From assembly GCA_001938485.1 (NCBI GenBank), contig MQRK01254813.1, positions 1 to 56,875 of the forward strand: DNA of 56,875 nucleotides, given 5' to 3'. Made by a program: the position numbers and the translations under genes. Positions 16,177 through 54,179 of this stretch are shown here, one piece after another; within the stretch, counting starts at the first letter, position 1, and each line of letters begins with the position of its first letter. The notes beneath the pieces were generated by a model that saw nothing but the letters and a program-made list of their open reading frames with translations, made no database searches and was not told the origin of the DNA. Source of the stretch: Girardia tigrina (Eukaryota).

Positions 16177-16719
16177 TTCTTTAAATTGTAAATATAAAGG
16201 GTCAGATAAGTCAGTAGAGACACCCGAACACTTAAAAATGTCCGAAAATAATGAAAAAATCCCAGTTTATTAGTCGCAATTAAAGTATTAAGAGAAATAT
16301 TATATACAAATTCCTTCGGCTCAGCTTTGGTCCCTTTCACAGAGTTTCCCCGCTACCGGATTCCTTTACTGGAGCCGAGATCAAGCCATCACCAGATCCA
16401 ACATCAACCTTTTCACCGAGGATATCAGGAAAGGCACCCGTCCTAGACGTGCACTCAACAGAGTTAAGCAGGCTACCTCCATACACACACGGATCAAGGC
16501 TTTTGTCGGTTGGTGTTTTTCAAGATGCTCACAAGAATTGCTCAGAAGATTCGGGCCAAAACCGGGTTGTTTTTTGTTCCGTTTTTTTCCTCTGTTTCTA
16601 ATTGTTCTCCTTGGTCTCCAGCTGCTCCTTCCGGATCGCACACTGTCCTCCAGTCAACTGCCTTCCAACCAGCGCTCAACAGTACCTGCCAGAACACCTC
16701 GGAAACAAGGACCGGACAA

Positions 16720-16909
16720 ACTTACCTGGGATCTGCGCCAGAGTCAACTTACCCGGAACCAATTCAAGAGTATACTTACCTGGCACCAGCTTAGGAGTCA
16801 ACTTACCTGGGACCCACTTCTGGCGATCAGAAACATACTTACCTGGGACCAGCTCCAGGATCAACTTACCTGGGACCCTCTTCTGGTGATCAAAGGCATA
16901 CTTACCTGT
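16720..16909 (+). repeat. Seven-copy coding minisatellite with core ACTTACCTG (Thr-Tyr-Leu)
   Basis: Cores at 16720, 16747 (ACTTACCCG), 16774, 16801, 16837, 16864 and 16900. Spacing 27, 27, 27, 36, 27, 36. Confidence 0.9.
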
Positions 16910-17379
16910 TGTCAGAATCATCAAATACTGTGCAGAGTACGATCCGTAAGCCGGTAGAACTTCCAGATATCTCAAATGCTACTCCACTCCTGACTCCTAA
17001 TACAGAACTCCCTTCTGAATCGGACTTGGAAACTGCTCTAAATCTTTTTACTGATGGCCATGTTACCAGACAGCAGCTTCTTAGAAAATTTATCAAGAGG
17101 ATGACCAATAAAGAAGAATACTTTCAAAAGTTCTGCAAGGCTGCTCTTCAAGCATGTGGCTCCAACAAATCCAGAGACAACATAATAGGACAATGCACTC
17201 GTCTCATTAGCGTTCATTGTGCCTCCTCCATTTCGACTCTTCAGAGTAACTTTGCTGTTCAAGGTATCATCCAAAGTTATATCCGTCATTGAAGAGTGTA
17301 AGGCTGCACCCTCCACGTGGCTAGACCAGTCTGTTATTGCGCCTAATATTCCAGCCATGCCCAATGATATTTCTGATCT

Positions 17380-42299: not shown

Positions 42300-43745
42300 T
42301 TGAAATTAAAAATAAATTTAAACATTACATATTTTTAGATAATAAGAATTCAAATATTAATCATCCATCTGGGTAGGAGAGACATATTTCCAAATCAACA
42401 TACACATTCAAACACAAAACATCAAACATTCAAAATATTTCTCACATCCCCCTCGATTTAAATGGCTTTAGCCATTCAACATTTCTAATAAAACTTCTTC
42501 CATCTTCAAGCTGTAACTCGTAACTTTTTTCATGATTTCTTTTCACCACTGTTACGGGACCCATGTAACGGCCATCTTCTTTTGAGACATTTTCCTTCTT
42601 AATTAATACTTTGTCTCCGACTTCTAAAATCCTTCTTGTCTCTGTTTTTGGTTCAACTGCTTTCAAATTTTTGTTATCTTCGTAATTGTTTTTCCACCAA
42701 TGTTTCAGTTTTCTTCAAAATACACTCTCGGTCGGTGACATGCCTATCGTAGCTTGTACAGTACTATTTAACATAAACTCGACTTCTGATAAGATTTCTG
42801 TCCAATCTTTATGATCTCCATCCTTCATTCTAATATTTAAAGCATCTCTGATCGTGCAAAACTGTCTTTCCACGATTCCATTTGTGTTATGATGATATGG
42901 ACTCGAATAAAATACCTCAACTTTAATTTTTTCCCCATGTCCTTGAACAAAACCGATTCAAATGTTTTTCCTCTGCCTACGTGGATTTCTTTTGGTGGTC
43001 CGAATTTCGATATCCATCTGTCCAATAATAATTTTCTAACTGTTTTTTCATCTTGACTAGCTGCTGCATTCAAGCTAATATATCTATTAAACTGGTCAAT
43101 TATTGCAAATATATATTGACATCCATTTATATTTCTTTTGAATGATCCACAAAAATCAATGTATATTTTCTGGAAAGGTTCATCCGCTAATTGCTTTATA
43201 TGTTTTTCTTTTATTTTGGTTTTTAATGTCTTCCTTTTTTGATAATTTATGCAACTTTGAACGATTTCTTTTATAAATTATCTCATATTTTTCAAAATTG
43301 GTGTTTAATTCATTCTGTCTTTTAGTTTTTGAAAAGCCTCATAACATTCTTTAGTCCAAATCAGTTTCTTATCCTTATTTTTACCACATAAACCTTCCAA
43401 TACTTTTGCATATCTTGCGTAATCCTTTATAAATTTTCTGTAGTAATTTGTCAAGCCCAAAAAGCTTNGTAAATGTTTAATGCATGATGGGCTTTGAAAC
43501 TTGCTTATCGCGTCAATCTTTGATTTATCTGTTTCAATACCATCTTTGCTTATTATATATCCTAAGAATTTAGTCTTTTCTACTAAAAATTGACACTTCT
43601 CCGGATGTATTCTCACACCTGATTCTTTGATTTTCTACAATACGTTTTTTACTCTTTGAATATGTTCTTTCTTATCTTTTGCAAAAATCAAAATATCATC
43701 CAAATGTACGACTGCTTCTTTCCAATTCAAATCTCCTAAAATGAT
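42300..43745 (-). mobile_element. Gypsy pol remnant (RT end, RNase H deleted, integrase, PPT, start of 3' LTR)
   Basis: VHLDDILIF, KCQF..FLGYII, FLGLTNYYRKFI, integrase SPYHHNTNGIVER. PPT GAGGGGGA at 42447-42454, then TGTGAGAAATAT from 42446. Confidence 0.9.
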
Positions 43746-44339
43746 TACTAACTTTAATAATAGAATTTATTACACTTGTTTGATTGTAAAATGAGCGCGA
43801 TGAAATTTGTCATGAAGAGAAGATGCTATTAATAAAACAGCTGAGTGTATTTATATGAAATTTCAAGAGAAAAATTAAATAATGAATGATGATTCAGAAG
43901 AAATATGGAAGTCTTTCTTTAGTGGCATCCACAACGCCGGCAATCATGCTGACCGTGTTCTCATTGTGGTTGTCTCTGGCCACGCACCTCTACGCTCGCG
44001 TTTTGCGTCACAACTAATAAGTTACTCATTTTATCTCTATATAGTTCTACCTTGCGGAACACGACGCTCAAACTCTCGGGTCTGCTCGAAACATCTGGAA
44101 TGGTCGTGTCTTGGACGAGGATCGTTGTCTCAATCGCAAATCGTCTTATTGTCTCAGTTAAAAATCGTCTCGTCCAAATTCCCACGCATCAAATTAGCTG
44201 CCGTAGTTTCGCAACTGATTGATTTAAACAAATGCGAAACTATTCACTTGTGTAACCGATTATCACTAAAATCGCGAACGAGAGAGTTTGTCCATCGAAT
44301 CGGCGACGAAATTCCAGTCGGAAAAAAAAATTTGGAAAA

Positions 44340-44605
44340 TTTGAGGACAGATATTTTTAAAAATAAATCAATCGTTGAAGCAGAGGAATTCTACTATAAT
44401 ACAATTACAAAAAATCAATTGTACTAATCACAGACGAATTGGTCGTCAAGACGACGGGGGTTGCGATGTATGTTTCATGGGAAATTTTAATTTGAAAGCG
44501 AATTGGTTATCTTATTCTTTTGGTGTTAATTATATCTGGGAGTTTGATGATCTGGAAATTTCGACGAAATTTAATTGTTTTGTCAGAACATTCGATCCTT
44601 CAGTG
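44340..44605 (+). pseudogene. Captured METTL24-like (Methyltransf_22) fragment; second copy at about 52670-52933
   Basis: C..HRRIGRQDDGGCDVC...SYSFGVNYIWEFD...FNCFVRTFDPS follows the R.G..DGGW.VC / YSFG.N..W.FD / C.V..FDP pattern. Confidence 0.65.
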
Positions 44606-44656
44606 ACAAAAAAAATCCGAATGAAATTCCAGCAAGCTAAAAATAGGCAACCCACG

Positions 44657-44859
44657 ATTGGCCGATCTAAAAATAGATTGGCCCATCTGAGAATGATGTT
44701 AATTTTTTGTGAAAAATGATTTATTGAAATTTAACTTTTCCGAAAAATATTCGGTGATTTCGATTCTTGTTTAAATTAATTAATTTGAGAAATTAAATAA
44801 ATTTTGGCGCAAAGTGATTTTTTTTAATCTGATTTGTTTTTTAAAAAAGCAGCCATTTT
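44657..44859 (+). promoter_or_regulatory. Candidate LTR promoter
   Basis: Two inverted CCAAT boxes (ATTGG at 44657 and 44677) and YY1-like GCAGCCATTTT at 44849-44859, present in both LTRs. Confidence 0.4.
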
Positions 44860-45636
44860 TTTTATTTTAAAACTTTTTCTTGTTTTCTGGAAAATAGAGA
44901 TTGAGAGGTTCGAGTTTCGGTGGCCGTGGTTTGATTTCGTACAATTTTTTTTTAAAAATGGAATCGGTACCAAACAACACGATTTACATGAACAATCTCG
45001 ATAAAAGAATCAAAAAATAAAAGCTGAAAAAAGCTCTATTTGCCGTGTTCTCTCAATTCGGACGAAATCTCAAAATTATGGTCAGTACACGATTAAAATT
45101 GAAAGGTTTGTTGTGTTTGAAAATATCAAATGCCCTGAAGCTTATTGTACTAAGTCAATTGAAAATAGAGAAATAAAAAAGCTCTTAAATGAAAATGATT
45201 ATGAATTGTATATGAGAAAATCGTTAAATCGTGTTAAGCCAAAGTTGGTCAATTCATATCAATGTCAAACTCCGAACTGTGACTTCTTCTGTGAATTATA
45301 TGACAAAAATCTGAAGACCTTAAAATGTCCAAAATGTAAAGAGGAAAATTGTCTTTCTTGTAAAGCTGTCCACCCAAAAGAGAAATGTAAAGACTATCAA
45401 GCTAGAAATATTTGTGCCAGCTAAAACCGCGATGCAATCCGGAACCTTTTGGACGAGGAATTGGAGAATCGAATCTGATCAGCCAGAGAAAGATGTGCGA
45501 ATAACGTTGGAAACGGCAATCGGGAAATTTGAAATCAGTGAGATTATTAATTTAAATCCCCCGTGTCCCGCAACCCACCCACCATCGCTAACACGTCGCA
45601 ACCACAAAGCTGCGCTGACTCTTGCACAACCATTTC

Positions 45637-45654
45637 TGGTAACAGAGCGTGGTT
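45637..45654 (+). promoter_or_regulatory. PBS resembling the complement of initiator tRNA-Met
   Basis: TGGTAACAGAGCGTGGTT, 4 nt after the LTR end. Confidence 0.75.
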
Positions 45655-46296
45655 GCGGCGCTCTGGTGTTGGGGGGTGGTCTTCCGGGTCGTGGGCTTGT
45701 TTGTGGATCTCGAGCATTCTTCCCCCTGATGGATGAGTGTCAGAGTATGTTTGAAAGAGTTAATGTTTTGAATGTGAATGATGTTATGTGGATTGAGAGT
45801 GATGACTTAAAACAATTTGAGAACTGCGCTAAGTTTCTGTGGAGGTTTCCGATAGTGACTGCTGTTGCGCTTGTCATGCTGAGTCTTTGCGAATCTAGAG
45901 TGAAGAGTCCCACCGATTAAATATTGAGTCCAACACCCGGACGAGACTTCTCCCTCAGGGTTCGCTGTATTATTTAAACATGTTTGATTGTGTTTCGGTG
46001 AATGTTTGGTTGAGGATGTCACTGTCGGAGAATCATAGAGTCAAGTATCCAGTAGCTGATCTAGAAATACTAAATTGTAATTTGAAGTGCAATGGAAATG
46101 TGCAGTCGTCGGATGAATCTTGGTCGAGATCGAGTCGCATCATTGGAGAGGATGATTGTTCGACACTGCAATTAGAGTTCGCAGCACTGAAAAACCAGTC
46201 TGATCCGAACTCGGAAGGATTTAAAAATTATGATGACCAGCTACAGGTGAATGAGACACCCCTGACCAAGGAAGAGAGCTGTTTTAAGGAATTGTA

Positions 46297-46524
46297 GGGA
46301 AATTATTTGTCAAAACGCTCAAAGGAAAGACCACAAAGTTAGAGATCAATTCCAGTGACTCAATAGACGAAATCAAGGCCAAGATCCAGGAGAAAGAAGG
46401 TGTTCCTCCTGATCAACAAAGGTTTATTTTCGCCGGTAAACAGCTCGAGAACGGGAAAATGTTTGGCGAATACAACATACATAAAGATGCAACCATCCAT
46501 TTCCTTTTGCGGTTACGAGGAGGA
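46297..46524 (+). CDS. Ubiquitin moiety in the gag N-terminal region (not in ORF track)
   Basis: [76 protein letters not shown]. 48 of 76 residues identical to canonical ubiquitin by manual alignment. Confidence 0.95.
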
Positions 46525-46597
46525 AGCGATAAGAAGACCGCTGGAGTGGAAAGTCCAGAAACAATGGGAAGAAGGATTGTACCAAAAGCCAAATTGA

Positions 46598-48280
46598 AAG
46601 AGAAATTTGACAAGGAGACGTAATCAAGCCTAGGAGGTACTTCGAACGAATGAGGAAGTGCAGAAAAGAGGTGAAGATTACGAAAATTAGTTCGAAAAGG
46701 CGATAAAAAAGTTCGAAGATCTCGTACATTTGGGGAAGGAATTAGGTCACAAAGATGAAGTGGTAAAGCTGATGGACAAGATGACAGAGATCGAGAACAA
46801 ACATGATGAATATCAGTCAAAATTTGAGGCGGAGACCGATCGGAAATGGAAATCAACTGTAGCTTCAGAAAACAAGAATTTCAATCATTCGCCAGCAAGT
46901 TTGGGAACGTTCAGATTGAAACGATTGCAGCTGCCCAGGTTCTCTGGGAATGTTATAGAATATGCCAAGTGGAGACAGATTTTCGACGAATTTGTCGACA
47001 AGATGGAGATTCTAGATGTGGACAAGCAGCTGCAATTGGAAGAATGTCTAGACGGTCAAGCTCGAGAGCTTGTGAAAAATTTCGGATTTGGAGGAGGAGC
47101 TTATAAAGCTATACTAGACAAACTTGAGAAGTTTTATGGTGGTGAAAATCACAGTTACTCGGCGATTGTAAAGGAGGTAGCCGAGTTTCGCCCCATTTCC
47201 GAAGTCACAGCTGCACAATTGGACAAAATTGTGTACTTGCTGGATAGTCTTGTGCTGAGATTAAGGACAATTTGGAAGGCAGGGGAATTTGGCAATGGAC
47301 TGCTCTACCAAAGTCTGTTGCAAAAGCTGCCAGTGGACATAATATTAATGTGGGAGAGGCACCGCCAAGGATCGAATCTTGGAGAAGAAATGGTGACCTT
47401 GAAAGAGTAGCTGGAGAAGGAAGCAGAACTCCAAAGAATGGCGGCCGAATCAGTCCATGGCATCGGGATGTTGAGTGCCGATAGAAATAGGCGAACGATC
47501 ATAAACAATGATCGAAAAAAATCCTTTGTTTCTATGGCTGCAGAGTTTCAAAAATCAAAGAGAAGTCATCAGGGAACAGAGAAGAAAGCTGTGTACAGAA
47601 ATTATGAAAGAGGATATTGCAGATTCGGCCAAAATTGTCGGTTCTCGCACCCAGAGCTTTGCAAGAACATCTTCAAACAATCGTGTAATACGGTCAACTG
47701 CAGATACTTTCACAGAAAGATCGGTACTGAAAACCGCCACGATGCAGAGTCCAATGATGGACATAAAGATGAACACGGTGAGTCTGGAAGTAGAAATCAC
47801 ATGCTGATCACGAGCACCAGCACCAGACAGAGTCAACAGAGGGAGCAACAAGGAGTTATTGCTCTGCGAACCGTAAGCGCGTGGGTGACGAATGGTGACA
47901 AGTGGTTGAGAGGAAATTTTCTATTAGATGACCCCAGCACAGAGACTTTCGTGAGTCAAGCCTTCGCGAATGAATTGCAGCTGTATGGAGATCAAGCCAA
48001 GATCAGTGTCCAAGTTCTAGGAGGAGCAAGAAGGTTAATACCAGTGCAGAGAGTGAAATTTCAAATATGTGATGAAAAAGGACGAGTTAAAGAGAGTGTC
48101 TCAGCACTTGTGGTGAAAAATGTGACCGAGCCGATGGAAATAGTTCATTGGAATCAGGCAAAATCCAAGTGGAGTCATTTAAAAGGAATACGTTTTCCGA
48201 GGATCGGCAAGAAAGGTGTGATTGATGGACTGATCGGTGCAAATTATTTGAAATTGCAAACAGCATTAAAAGAAATTTGA
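46598..48280 (+). pseudogene. gag: BEL/Pao gag (DUF1759-type) and aspartic protease
   Basis: LKRLQLPRFSGNVIEYAKWRQIF..LEECLDGQA..LQKLP. CCCH fingers at 47591-47713. Protease-like FLLDDPSTETFVS and IDGLIGAN. Confidence 0.85.
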
Positions 48281-51200
48281 GGACATCCGGAAGATCCAGT
48301 TGCGCAACTTACTCCGCTGGGATGGACGTGTGTGGGGAAGGTACATCAAGACTATAAATCAACTCAATCCAATTTTATTTGGACATTTTTCAGCCGCGAA
48401 ATCAAAGCAGAGAGCAACGTGGAACTTCTCTGGAAATTGGAAGAATTCGAAAATCTCGACGATGTCAGAGGAAAAGTTAATGCAACTGAAGGAAATGGGA
48501 TCCTAAGTCGAACATCGGAAGCTGTTCATTATGACGGGGAGAGACACTGTGTCGGGTTACCATGAAAAGACAAGGTGGAATTGTGACCAAGCACGTTTGT
48601 AATGGAAAATATTAGATTGAAATCCCTCCGAAAATTGCTAGATAAACAACCGGAAGTGAAAGAGCTTTATCAGAGAGTGTTGCAAGAATATATCGAAAAA
48701 GGATACATTTCAGAAATGGGATCCGTGAACAGAGATAGACAACAATGGATCTTACCACACTTCCCTGTGGTCAAGCGTAACCAAGGAGAAATTAAACTCC
48801 GAATTGTGTTTGATGCAGCCGCCCAAGTTCAAGGGAGATGTCTTAACGATTATTAGCACACAGGGCCAAAGCTGCAGTCAGAATTATTGGATGTACTTCT
48901 GAGAATGCGAAAAAATCGTATGTAATATCGTGTGATATCAAGGAAATGTATCTGCAAGTAGAGGTGTGTAAAGATGATAGAAAATTCTTGCGTTTCCTAT
49001 GGGAAGACAATCAGAGCGGAATATTGAAGATTTTCGAATTCAATCGAGTGGTGTTTTGTCTAAATTCGTCGCCGTTTTTAGCACAGCTCGTTTGCAGAAT
49101 AAATGCAGATCAATTTGAAGAAAAATATCCACGAGCGGTGGAAGTTATAAAGAAATCGACATATATGGATGCCTGTATAGATTCTGTGAATTCGGAAAAG
49201 GAGGAGACAAAGCTGTTCAGACAATTAGAAGAGATATGGGATCACGCCGGTATGGAAGTTCATAAATGGGCCTCAATTTCTGAAAGATTGATGCAGTTAG
49301 TTCCGGAAGAGAAGCGATCAAAGAATATTACGTTTGAAAAAGAAGGGGCGAAGACTACCAAAACCTTGGGGTTGAAATGGGACGTCTCAAATGATATCTA
49401 TTGTTTTGACGCCAGAAAAGTGGATGGTGAAACGAAAATGACAAAACGAACTTTACTTAGTCAGCTAGCAAGGATTTTCGATCCATTAGGATTTTTGAGT
49501 TGTGTCACCATAAAGGGAAAGATCTTAATGCATAAACTGTGGATCATGAACTTAGACTGGGACGATAATTTGCCAGAGGAATTCCGAAAACTCTTTCGGA
49601 ATTGGCATGAACAATTGGAACGGTTAGATCGATTGCAATTCAAACGATATCTGGGAGTTTCGNCAGAATCTTCGATTTCATGCCATGTGTTTTGTGATGC
49701 CTCTTGCGAAGCCTATGGGACCGCAGTATATTTGAGAGTAGAAAATGAGAACGAAGTAGTACAACTACTCAAGTGTTTGCAAAAGCTCGAGTGACTCCAG
49801 TGAAATCGGTCTCGATTCCAAGATTGGAGCTCGTCGCGGCATGTTTAGCGGTGAAGGTGGGCCAGAGAGTGTTCAATTCGTTGGGAGTCAATGTCGAACA
49901 GACATTTTATTGGACAGACAAGATGGATGTCTTATATTGGATTCAGCAACGAAGCAAGGTCTTCAAAATGTTCGTGGCAAATCGTGTAAGTTACATCCAA
50001 GAACGAACAACAGGGCTTCAATGGCGTGATGTGAGTTCAAAGTCCAATCCTGCTGATTTGCTCATGCGAGAAGCAACGGTTGAAAAATTAACGACCAATG
50101 AGATCTGGAGAAGTGGACCTGAGTTTCTGTCAAAAGGAAGTGAAGAGTGGCCGAAGCAACCAGCAATGTCAATTAAAGCAAAAACGAAAAACGCAGAAAA
50201 GAGTTCATAATGATGACTGTAGTTTCGGTGATGAACCAGAGGAGATAGATGATACCAAATTCTGGATTCTGACAGGAGAAACGGAGTGGGCGAAGGCAAT
50301 TGCGGAAAAGGCCGAAAGTCTAAAAGACGAGATGGAAAATACACCAAGAAAAGATGTAATAGACAATAACAGTTTATCTAAAAATGAATCTCAATGGACG
50401 CGCATGGCTGAGAAAATGTTAATAAAAGAAGATCAATTGAATCATTTTTAGAAAGAGATAAAGCTCCTATAGAATGGGGCTGATTGTCCAGTGAGCAGTC
50501 AAATTTTGAAAGCAAATCCAGTGATTGCATCAGACGGATTGCTTCGATCGAACAGCAGGATTGTATTGACTGATGTGGTACCGTGGGAAACTAAGTAACC
50601 GGTCATATTAGCTCACGATTCGGATATTACAAAAATGATTATCAACCACTACCACGTTAATCTAAAACATTGTGCCGGGGTCAGCCATCTACATGCCGAA
50701 TTGTCAAGGAAGTATTGGTTCCCAAAAATGAAAAGGAAAATCAAAACGGTGATCAGACGATGTCAAGAATGTAGACGGAACTCTGCGACTGGAAAGTTCC
50801 AAAAGATGGCACCTTTACCAGAGTTCAGATTGAAGGAACCATTACGGGCTTTTTCAGTAGTAGGAGTCGACTATGCGGGACCTATTTGTATCAAGGTCGG
50901 ACGTGGGAAGGTCCAGGATAAAAGGTATATCTGTCTGTTTACTTGCCTCCAGAGTCGAGGCATACGTCTCGAACTGGCCTCAAGTCTGGAAACAGATGCC
51001 TTCATCAGAGCGTTTATACGATTCATGAGCAGACGAGGACTACCTTCCACAGTTGTGAGTGACAATGGTACAAATTTCGTCGGTGCCGTGAACGAGATAG
51101 TGGAGTTGAAGCTGGACAATTATAGATTGCGAAGTGAGCACGAGAAACATGAGATCAGATGGATCTTCAATCCACCAGGAGCTCCACATTTCGGAGGGGC

Positions 51201-51735
51201 ATATGAGGCAATGGTAAAGTCCGTCAAAAGAGTTCTAAATAAAATCCTACCGGAGGCCGATGTGACGGAAGAGGAGTTGACAACAGCTTTGATCATGACG
51301 GAGGGGATTATAAACGGGAGACCATTGACTATGAAGTGTGAAGATCCTGTTGAGGAAGTCCCTTTGTCACCAAATAATCTGATTATAGCTGGGTGGGATG
51401 GAGAGCATCCTGGAGAATTAGCAGGATCCACTAAAAGTCGTATTGTTGCCCGATGGTGACATGTTCAGAATTTAACCAAACAGTTCTGGTGTAGATGGAG
51501 GAAAGAAGTTCTGATCTCTAAGGAGAACTAGAGAGAAATAGAGGAGAGGAGAGATTAGATTCTTACCTGGAGATAATGTATGGATATTGGAAGAGAATGC
51601 CAGACAGGACATTGGAAGATTGGGAGAATTACACAAGTATTCCCAGGTAGAGATGATGTGGTTCGTGTGGTGGACGTCGAGATTGGAAAGAAGGTCCACC
51701 GAATGCCTGTGAATAAATTGTGTAAGATGTAATTA
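48281..51735 (+). pseudogene. pol: BEL/Pao pol (RT, RNase H, integrase) with several stops and frameshifts
   Basis: LPHFPV..KLRIVFDAA, YMDA (mutated YMDD), FCDAS..AYG, SIPRLEL, GVDYAGP, SDNGTNFVGA, PPGAPHFGG. Confidence 0.95.
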
Positions 51736-53285
51736 TATGAGGAGGATCCAACCCAGTTGAGTCAATAAAAGAGTTATTTCGGGAGGGGCGATTGATCCAA
51801 AACAGCCTAGGTCAAGTTTCGGGAATTCTGGAAGGGGGAAATGGAAGAGATCAATCGCGAGACCGAAACCACCTGCTGGTGAAGAAAGTGGAGAAATGAT
51901 TGGAAGGATGTGGAGGAGATGTCTCGACTTGAAGGGCTGAGGGCCTGAGAAAAATAAGGTATGATCTATGGAAAGTTGATGAGTGAGTATGTTGAACAGT
52001 AAGGTATGGTTGAGAATGAATGTGATGAATAGTTGAAAGCTTGAAATAGACTGTTGGGTATGATTGAGTATGAATCTGACCACTAGTGGTCAGAAGGGGG
52101 GAGAATGTTTGATTGTAAAATGAGCGCGATGAAATTCGTCATGAAGAGAAAATGCTATTAATAAAACAGCTGAGTGTATTTATATGAAATTTCAAGAGAA
52201 AAATTAAATAATGAATGATGATTCAGAAGAAATATGAAAGTCTTTCTTTAGTGACATCCACAACGTCGGCAATCATGCTGACCGTGTTCTCATTGTGGTT
52301 GTCTCTGGCCACGCACCTCTACGCTCGCGTTTTGCGTCACAACTAATAAGTTACTCATTTTATCTCTATATAGTTCTACCTTGCGGAACACGACGCTCAA
52401 ACTCTCGGGTCTGCTCGAAACATCTGGAATGGTCGTGTCTTGGACGAGGATCGTTGTCTCAATCGCAAATCGTCTTATTGTCTCAGTTAAAAATCGTCTC
52501 GTCCAAATTCCCACGCATCAAATTAGCTGCCGTAGTTTCGCAACTGATTGATTTAAACAAATGCGAAACTATTCACTTGTGTAACCGATTATCACTAAAA
52601 TCGCGAACGAGAGAGTTTGTCCATCGAATCGGCGACGAAATTCCAGTCGGAAAAAAAATTTGGAAAATTTGAGGACAGATATTTTTAAAAATAAATCAAT
52701 CGTTGAAGCAGAGGAATTCTACTATAATACAATTACAAAAAATCAATTGTACTAATCACAGACGAATTGGTCGTCAAGACGACGGGGGTTGCGATGTATG
52801 TTTCATGGGAAATTTTAATTTGAAAGCGAATTGGTTATCTTATTCTTTTGGTGTTAATTATATCTGGGAGTTTGATGATCTGGAAATTTCGACGAAATTT
52901 AATTGTTTTGTCAGAACATTCGATCCTTCAGTAACAAAAAAAATCCGAATGAAATTCCAGCCAGTTAAAAATAGGCAACCCACGATTGGCCGATCTAAAA
53001 ATAGATTGGCCAATCTGGGAATGATGTTAATTTTTTGTGAAAAATGATTTATTGAAATTTAACGTTTCCGAAAAATATTCGGTTATTTCGATTCTTGTTT
53101 AAATTAATTAATTTGAGAAATTAAATAAATTTTGGCGCAAAGTGATTTTTTTTAATCTGATTTGTTTTTTAAAAGAAGCAGCCATTTTTTATTTTAAAAC
53201 GTTTTCTTGTTTGCTGGAAAATAGAGATTGAGAGGTTCGAGTTTCGGTGGCTGTGGTTTGATTTCGTACAAAATTTTTTTTAAAA

Positions 53286-53458
53286 ATGGAATCGGTACCA
53301 AACAGCACAATTTACATGAACAATCTTGATAAAAGAATCAAAAAAGAAGAGCTAAAAAAGCTCTATTTGCCGTGTTCTCTCAATTCGAACGAAATCTCGA
53401 AATTATGGTCAGTACACGATTAAAATTGAAAGGTCAAGCGTTTGTTGTGTTTGAAAAT
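53286..53458 (+). pseudogene. Captured U1A/U2B''(SNF) RRM1 N-terminal fragment; second copy at 44958-45124
   Basis: [34 protein letters not shown](G/E)..L.IMVSTRLKLKGQAFVVF. Confidence 0.9.
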
Positions 53459-53737
53459 ATCAAATGCCCTGAAGCTTATTGTACTAAGTCAATTGAAAAT
53501 AGAGAAATAAAAAAGCTCTTAAATGAAAATGATTATGAATTGTATATGAGAAAATCGTTAAATCGTGTTAAGCCAAAGTTGGTCAATTCATATCAATGTC
53601 AAACTCCGAACTGTGACTTCTTCTGTGAATTATATGACAAAAATCTGAAGACCTTAAAATGTCCAAAATGTAAAGAGGAAAATTGTCTTTCTTGTAAAGC
53701 TGTCCACCCAAAAGAGAAATGTAAAGACTATCAAGCT
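53459..53737 (+). pseudogene. Captured RBR E3 ligase (HOIL-1/RBCK1-like) fragment covering the RING1 end and IBR; second copy at 45125-45403
   Basis: IKCP..C...IENREIKKLL..Y..SL..NSYQCQTPNC..C..KCPKC..NCLSCKAVH..CKDYQ. Confidence 0.8.
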
Positions 53738-53833
53738 AGAAAAGACAGAATATTTGTGCCACCTAAAACCGCGATGCAATCCGGAACCTTTTGGATGAGG
53801 AATTGGAGAATCGAATCTGATCAGCTAGAGAAA
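53738..53833 (+). pseudogene. Captured NDUFS4 (complex I 18-kDa subunit) fragment; second copy at about 45404-45491
   Basis: RKDRIFVPPKTAMQSGTFW(T/M)RNWRIESD, compared with the family motif R.VRIF.P...AMQSG...T..W.IEFD. Confidence 0.75.
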
Positions 53834-54179
53834 GATGTGCGAATAACGTTGGAAACGGCAATCGGGAAATTTGAAATCAGTGAGATTATTAATTTAAATC
53901 CCCCGTGTCCCGCAACCCACCCACCATCGCTAACACGTCGCAACCACAAAGCTGCGCTGGGCTCTTGCACCACCAACACTTAGTAAAACAAGGTCATTTT
54001 TTAAAATGAATTTAATAATTTTTACTTTATCGAGATCTAAACTTCCTAAATGAAAAAATAACAATATCATTGCATTTAATGGTGATCTCATTTTTGAAAA
54101 AGATAATCTCATATTGGTGTTTTCATTTAAGACTTTTTAATAAAATTAAAAGCTTTTATTGTTATTAAAATAAATGATG

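Follow-up and report, generated by a model that had tools for sequence, protein, structure and literature searches.

Ubiquitin in frame before Gag, and host-derived N-termini in the LTRs, of a BEL/Pao-type retrotransposon family in Girardia tigrina

According to their ICTV profile, BEL/Pao elements (Belpaoviridae) have LTRs of 0.2–1.2 kb, do not code in the region that follows the 5' LTR, and use tRNA Arg or Gly as primers (PMC8742986). The word ubiquitin is absent from the main text of the 2011 survey of these elements (PMC3118150). Sporadic pestivirus mutants and laboratory fusions are known to use a borrowed ubiquitin as a cleavage signal. In cytopathic pestiviruses, a host-derived and often mosaic insert ending in ubiquitin is placed in frame before a viral protein (PMC8310069, PMC13517609). 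Host hydrolases still cut a pestivirus ubiquitin of which the first three residues are missing, and NS3 is released (PMC8310069). LTR-mediated retrocopies consist of partial host mRNAs, with several donors contributing to a chimera, short words in common at the junctions and additional copying rounds (Tan et al. 2016, PMC5131818), and BEL/Pao elements are among their carriers (PMC5131818). Burro, a group of giant gypsy elements of planarians, encodes a polyprotein with many host-like domains, including a Ubi2/SUMO-like motif (PMC6431247). In the portions of the literature covered here, neither a ubiquitin-Gag BEL element nor an LTR supplying host start codons was found; a database entry may exist.

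The window analysed here is the whole stretch of 56,875 nucleotides of contig MQRK01254813.1 (Girardia tigrina, assembly GCA_001938485.1). It contains one copy of the element, with the following features.

43772..43776, no strand: left 5-bp target-site duplication
43777..45632, plus: 5' LTR (TG...CA, 1856 bp), two conserved element parts set in a mosaic of host mRNA pieces
43786..44650, plus: variable upstream LTR part with host-derived scraps and no frame bias (borders approximate)
44655..44860, plus: conserved promoter-like core, with two CCAAT-type words (44657, 44677), TTTGGCGC (44803) and CAGCCATTTT (44850)
44958..45130, plus: captured RRM N-terminus (RRM by Pfam), which we take to be from a U1A/U2B''-like gene, with its own ATG at 44958; frameshifted in this copy
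45131..45406, plus: captured IBR-domain piece (RBR E3 ligase)
45407..45489, plus: captured NDUS4 piece
45537..45632, plus: conserved LTR 3' core (96 bp), Gag frame open and the other two closed in most copies
45637..45652, plus: primer-binding site (PBS), read through in frame, complementary to genomic tRNA-Met-like 3' ends
45653..46296, plus: leader from PBS to ubiquitin, frame kept in the family and protein near neutral; broken here at about 45833 and 46300
46297..46524, plus: divergent ubiquitin, ending LRLRGG and followed by Ser
46525..47410, plus: linker and Gag (DUF1759 at about 46940–47368), with a frameshift at about 46555–46560 and stops
47411..48280, plus: CCCH zinc finger and protease (DUF1758)
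48847..50210, plus: reverse transcriptase and Peptidase_A17 region, broken
50599..51459, plus: integrase (H2C2 zinc finger and core)
52092..52105, plus: polypurine tract (PPT)
52106..53975, plus: 3' LTR, a mosaic like the 5' LTR; RRM-IBR-NDUS4-core open for 183 codons
53976..53980, no strand: right 5-bp target-site duplication

Judged by its Pol, the window ubiquitin belongs to a BEL/Pao-type retrotransposon, with atypical LTR and leader traits. LTRs, PBS, polypurine tract, DUF1759 Gag, protease, reverse transcriptase (RT), Peptidase_A17 and integrase are shared with BEL/Pao elements and stand in the same order (PMC8742986; PMC3118150). By Pfam, the domain order is DUF1759, DUF1758, RVT_1, Peptidase_A17, Integrase_H2C2 and rve, and the nearest ESM Atlas clusters are all DUF1759. 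The element differs from the BEL/Pao profile in its LTR lengths (554–2419 bp, mostly above 1.3 kb and up to about 2.4 kb), in a coding region after the LTR, in a PBS that looks tRNA-Met-type and in the ubiquitin before Gag. The PBS matches 13 tRNA-like 3' ends in the genome. In some of these a CAT triplet occupies the anticodon position; no tRNA was called at such loci by ARAGORN (five loci) or Rfam (three loci). We read it, as an assumption of our own, as the initiator-tRNA (Met) type. A promoter role is inferred for the conserved LTR core, and its words presumably correspond to the factors NF-Y, E2F and YY1.

The window copy is dead. The initial annotation had placed one frameshift on each side of the ubiquitin; both exist, at about 46300 and at 46555–46560, and both are absent from the four sister copies compared. 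Stops in gag-pol are found at 46631, 46688, 47408 and 48278, with more beyond these. A fully open gag-pol copy was not seen in the fragmented assembly. The two window LTRs are 97.3% identical, with 28 mismatches in 1852 bases aligned by BLAST. The initial annotation had put the difference at about 2% and had dated the divergence of the ubiquitin from it to before the insertion. Host ubiquitin is the wrong yardstick for that dating, because sister lineages carry near-canonical ubiquitin. RNA-type assemblies cover the window LTR piecewise, with unattached ends where the pieces join, and leader and ubiquitin (45793–46541) lie together on one RNA-Seq metatranscriptome contig; both are contigs that indicate presence only. 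On the left, the element adjoins decayed frames that resemble, by eye, a gypsy-like RT, an integrase and a chromodomain (42442–43634, minus strand).

The ubiquitin at 46297–46524 comprises 76 stop-free codons and is recognised by Pfam (E = 5e-26). It is identical to Pro19 ubiquitin (PDB alignment) at 48 of 76 positions, as first reported, and to the genome's own ubiquitin at 49 of 76, the difference being due to Ser19 in the host protein. All seven lysines, L8, R42, I44, R72 and the terminal GG are retained, as had been stated, and V70 is replaced by L. AlphaFold on a 17-row alignment returned the ubiquitin order of helix and strands (pLDDT 78.8); a model from the single sequence was poor and uninformative (60.3). 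The initial description needs a correction at the N-terminus: Met1 is missing and the first one or two codons stem from the break at about 46300, so that the window ubiquitin is not an independent start.

A DNA search of the genome gave 44 matches among the 40 scored of 218 candidates, and a protein search with ubiquitin gave 2405 first-look candidates. The fetched loci held 101 distinct ubiquitin units, a sample biased to matches near the window type. By linker class, 65 of these are element-borne and 30 are host polyubiquitin, ribosomal fusions or a zinc-knuckle fusion. Five of the six unclassed units look element-borne too, and one unit of the polyubiquitin class is the upstream unit of an element. 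The Gag N-terminal motif follows GG in frame in 29 of 42 element copies (strict pattern), and 20 of the 42 have at least 100 open codons after GG.

At least three lineages carry ubiquitin in frame directly before Gag, and a fourth is probable. Lineage A is that of the window and carries a near-canonical and two divergent ubiquitin types. Lineage B has an LRLCGG tail and an RT that is 44% identical, while the RT of lineage C is 36–44% identical. Further lineages (L299, 755–1132; L117) have a ubiquitin with an LQGG end before a Gag-like helix; in L299 an HSP90-like remnant stands upstream of it. In a family C copy (L261, 7448–7901, minus strand), the full unit is preceded by a longer, decayed ubiquitin with a GS end, whose nearest match is unit 2 of the host tri-ubiquitin gene L077. 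In two family B derivatives (L062, 360–3107, and L265), Gag runs into long coiled-coil repeats without a capsid match; these derivatives are possibly non-autonomous.

Outside this assembly, a query of ubiquitin plus Gag was swamped by polyubiquitin, and a Gag-only query covering 1.84 billion representatives was then used. Ubiquitin or its tail precedes Gag in six of the best 150 Gag relatives. One of the six is 86% identical and likely comes from the same or a close species. The other five have Gag proteins that are 26–35% identical, on short JGI or ENA contigs, and one distant relative shares the HSP90 remnant of family B before its ubiquitin. A separate Gag-only search against longer proteins returned no case among 4920, and a metagenome contig scan none among 30 candidates.

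The LTRs of the family consist of a variable upstream part, the conserved core, about 180–280 AT-rich bases, the ATG of a host-like N-terminus, more coding pieces and the 96-bp end. Only 9–19 bases after the polypurine tract are common to the LTR starts. Exact 5-bp target duplications flank 17 of the 25 LTRs scored as solo, a set that includes at least two 3' LTRs whose PPT is variant and one LTR at the edge of its locus. These duplications indicate that the host-piece mosaics are true LTRs. After the core, host-like N-termini of RRM, SMC_N, PRS7 and small GTPase type are found, and we take the captured genes to be U1A, SMC1, PRMT1, PSMC2 and IFT22. Long natural frames open in the LTR with a different, Pfam-confirmed host protein per copy, namely PRMT, RNA polymerase N subunit with HSP90, HR1, and 14-3-3 with PRMT. 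The leader begins within the LTR, and does so in captured host N-termini that are interchangeable. Two natural frames of 802 and 915 codons (11–12 and 6 unresolved residues) run from the host piece through PBS and leader into ubiquitin and Gag; the in-frame leader-ubiquitin-Gag fusion, for which the initial annotation had suggested a test, is present in natural sister copies.

The reading frame of these pieces was assessed by stop counts, since stops in the LTR core confound a test by open-run length. Across the 80 codons that precede the LTR 3' core, 68 LTRs contain 80 stops in the Gag frame versus 406 and 322 in the other two (24 matches with N or contig ends, counting duplicates, were skipped), and 41 of the 68 have none in the Gag frame. 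The Gag frame is the lowest in stops in 15 of 20 LTR sequence groups (binomial p = 1.7e-4); the groups share nested older pieces, and in the remaining five the Gag frame is not the lowest. As a control, the region before the promoter core has 122, 139 and 148 stops in 33 LTRs and shows no bias (7 of 17 groups, p = 0.33). Pfam was run on 104 of 153 LTR segments, 46 post-core and 58 pre-core. Among the post-core segments with domains, 19 of 21 are in the Gag frame, representing eight domain types, and none of the 58 pre-core segments has a domain. In the seven best-kept LTRs, the first in-frame ATG follows the CCAAT words at a distance of 179–276 nt. Among the 20 family-A copies in which a PBS was seen, 15 have it in frame with ubiquitin, at eight different spacings.

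The captured pieces are mostly under weak constraint (dN/dS 0.46–0.98), and two are clearly below 1, SMC1 (0.46) and HSP90 (0.47). Genomic parents were sought for three pieces. The Rab21 piece lacks two GT-AG introns of its parent, which indicates an mRNA origin in this one case; of the other two parents, one has a single exon across the matching region, and that of the SMC1 piece was not among 40 scored matches. Short shared words were seen by eye at two junctions, 7 nt at IBR/NDUS4 and 4–5 nt at Rab21. Two solo family-A LTRs (L187, L190) hold in frame a stretch like the family B LTR end, PBS and repeat leader; one family has thus captured RNA of the other. In another locus (L170, at 1501), the match of the host parent to the first piece of one LTR begins just after AG, two bases before the ATG, and no matching upstream exon was found within 800 bases. 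A spliced-leader origin of the first LTR bases is conceivable on account of this AG; all 12 pattern matches sought for it were LTR starts or truncated LTRs, and none was a leader gene.

The ubiquitin is under purifying selection inside the element, as the initial annotation had suggested. In the same near-canonical copies, dN/dS is 0.84 for the leader, 0.20 for the ubiquitin and 0.50 for the N-terminal part of Gag; with transition weighting, the values are 1.13, 0.27 and 0.70. Pairwise values for ubiquitin range from 0.05 to 0.32 within and between element types (natural copies; pairs are not independent), and the window type gives 0.21 among its five copies.

Based on the composition of these frames, we consider it probable that the expressed frame runs from LTR-captured host starts through leader and ubiquitin into Gag, with the ubiquitin serving as a site at which deubiquitinases free Gag. 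Transcription would start just past the conserved LTR core. The reverse transcriptase would leave its template at a short word shared with a host mRNA packaged alongside, copy that mRNA to its 5' end and switch back, and both new LTRs would inherit the new host start. Only captures in the Gag frame would be productive. Translation would initiate at the captured host ATG, and host deubiquitinases would cut the polyprotein after Gly76, yielding Gag-Pol with a fixed Ser, Met or Gly N-terminus and a leader-ubiquitin piece as waste. The interchangeable host N-termini in the leader would give the ubiquitin a likely purpose. We lean, with less assurance, towards the wider proposal that the element has no fixed start of its own and snatches host mRNA 5' ends into its LTR to be translated into Gag-Pol, the cut ubiquitin making any start harmless. 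Such a process would amount to large-scale exon shuffling, leaving hundreds of solo LTRs with promoter and chimeric ORF, and would occur in other species too.

Of the readings offered by the initial annotation, pestivirus-like cleavage would fit best. The layout of a pestivirus-type signal is found in the element: ubiquitin is in frame directly before Gag, GG is intact and the next residue is not Pro. Cleavage at Gly76 is likely, because cellular deubiquitinases cut N-terminal ubiquitin fusions and truncated pestivirus ubiquitin still releases NS3. Pestivirus inserts are sporadic, belong to an RNA virus and lie within the polyprotein, whereas the element ubiquitin appears fixed and selected, is diverging in several lineages and stands behind exchangeable host starts. 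UbL40, UbS27a, polyubiquitin and the laboratory ubiquitin-fusion method are likewise linear ubiquitin-X fusions, in which the cut after Gly76 sets the N-terminus of X (PMC7047443). In these fusions, however, ubiquitin is N-terminal and released free; in the element it is internal and the predicted product is leader-ubiquitin. LTR-mediated retrocopies are internal and flanked by discontinuous elements (PMC5131818), in contrast to captures that lie inside both LTRs and solo LTRs, with gag-pol order kept and the Gag frame held. Burro is a gypsy and not a BEL/Pao element, and its host-like domains are part of the polyprotein; in the passages covered, its description mentions neither a near-canonical ubiquitin joined to Gag through Gly-Gly nor LTRs with variable host starts (PMC6431247).

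Two observations count against host starts: in-frame ATGs are also present after the PBS, and near-canonical ubiquitin types keep Met1 (16 of 18 copies in family A, 10 of 10 in family B). The captured pieces with dN/dS below 1 and the five LTR groups in which the Gag frame is not the lowest also speak against the proposal. Short shared words between coding sequences may themselves carry an in-frame bias, which is a possible weak point of this part of the proposal. Against cleavage counts the Cys at position 74 in family B, where 24 of 24 copies have C or L. No report of cleavage of a C74 or L74 ubiquitin was found in the literature covered, and none of the passages covered of PMC7047443 deals with R74.

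A ubiquitin that stays on Gag as a folded tag, recruiting trafficking factors or aiding folding, is an unlikely alternative to a cut site. Constraint does cover the whole ubiquitin fold beyond the tail, R74 is replaced in families B and D, and the hydrophobic patch is mostly kept within the genome. In ten diverged ubiquitin-Gag fusions, however, G75 and G76 are invariant, as are L71 and L73, and the next residue is Ser in seven, Met in two and Gly in one, never Pro. The same fusions keep I44 in only five of nine cases, K48 in eight of nine, K63 and R72 in eight of ten each and R74 in six of ten. Moreover, cellular deubiquitinases cut N-terminal ubiquitin fusions, a reaction that a change of Gly76 prevents (PMC7047443). 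What counts against a cut site is the conservation within the genome: 34 of 40 A/C copies and 24 of 24 B copies keep GG, and G76 (29 of 32) is no better conserved than other conserved positions.

It is equally improbable that the ubiquitin is a by-product of the capture of abundant mRNAs, its conservation reflecting re-capture and the frame bias reflecting in-frame microhomology or mRNA surveillance in place of a use of host starts. Capture by the element does extend to many other genes, and the ubiquitins of families A, B and C match units of the host tri-ubiquitin gene L077. The near-canonical ubiquitins are patchworks of this gene (pS 0.10–0.31 in parts): family B residues 2–51 match its unit 1, and family A/C residues 2–26 and the upstream remnant match its units 3 and 2. 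These types have in part been refreshed from host L077 mRNA, and part of their low dN/dS is therefore host selection. The window type, in contrast, is far from every L077 unit in every third (pS 0.57–0.90) and equally far from UbL40, UbS27a and the other polyubiquitins, yet shows the low dN/dS given above. Recent passive capture of a divergent host ubiquitin-like gene, which had been named as one possible refutation of constraint within the element, is rejected for the window type, as no close donor was found among the host genes checked (polyubiquitins, UbL40, UbS27a and the tri-ubiquitin gene). Other captures turn over, whereas ubiquitin holds its place before Gag in lineages with Gag proteins of only 26–35% identity. 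The nucleotide tree of the ubiquitins has no settled root and yields no count of captures. The host ubiquitin loci (L077, L296, L304, L050–L059) comprise many short AT-rich polyubiquitins and the one GC3-rich tri-ubiquitin gene, and decayed UbL40 copies are found at L317–L319.

Somewhat less probable still is a useful leader-ubiquitin, that is, a variant ubiquitin or host-domain decoy that is conjugated and disturbs host ubiquitin signalling. The window type has the lysines, R42, R72 and GG for it, E3-UB fusions show that an N-terminal extension does not prevent activation and conjugation of ubiquitin (PMC7047443), and some leaders contain pieces of the ubiquitin system (IBR, PRS7). That a free variant ubiquitin is released and interferes with chains, as the initial annotation had considered, is not borne out. 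To be freed as a monomer, the ubiquitin would need either Met1 or a Gly-Gly ahead of it. None of the 14 copies of the divergent types has Met1, so that translation must begin upstream in them, and the upstream ubiquitin-tail remnant ends in GS or GN in 16 of 18 copies, so that the product would remain fused to the leader. The leaders vary between copies and evolve near neutrality, and I44, K63, R72 and R74 vary (K63 and R72 each in two of the ten distant fusions) while GG does not.

That the LTR host pieces act as RNA, as small RNAs against host genes or by masking, with ubiquitin making the cargo tolerable, is very improbable: Drosophila telomeric elements do take up fragments of the host and produce piRNAs directed at them (PMC13534243), and the upstream LTR part has host scraps without frame bias, but the named donors are unrelated housekeeping genes with no silencing gene among them, and a frame bias after the promoter core is not predicted.

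If the cleavage and host-start proposal is true, the ubiquitin of this family would be a fixed, selected retrotransposon module coupled to the ongoing uptake of host starts into the LTR, and a new mode of retroelement expression. It would also explain a genome full of chimeric host-gene scraps, each solo LTR being a promoter-like core with a mosaic of in-frame host N-termini. The elements hold naturally occurring ubiquitin variants (R74C, Q, K, Y; R72K, N) with which the needs of deubiquitinases can be probed. Caution is advised in such genomes, as thousands of ubiquitin-like matches and many apparent gene duplicates may be element cargo.

Two further observations were made. At three loci (L273, 1489–2367, minus strand; L300; L302), a single frame encodes Met-ubiquitin-GG, then a further, degenerate ubiquitin, and CCHC zinc knuckles. 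This fusion occurs in at least three copies, has codons near those of the AT-rich host polyubiquitins and is possibly a second, independent fusion of ubiquitin to a Gag-like protein. Elsewhere in the window, positions 16718–16930 contain tandem units of 27–63 nt, each with ACTTACCTGG; we take the minus strand of this word to be a repeated 5' splice-site-like word, and the plus strand, in our reading, resembles the start of U1 snRNA.
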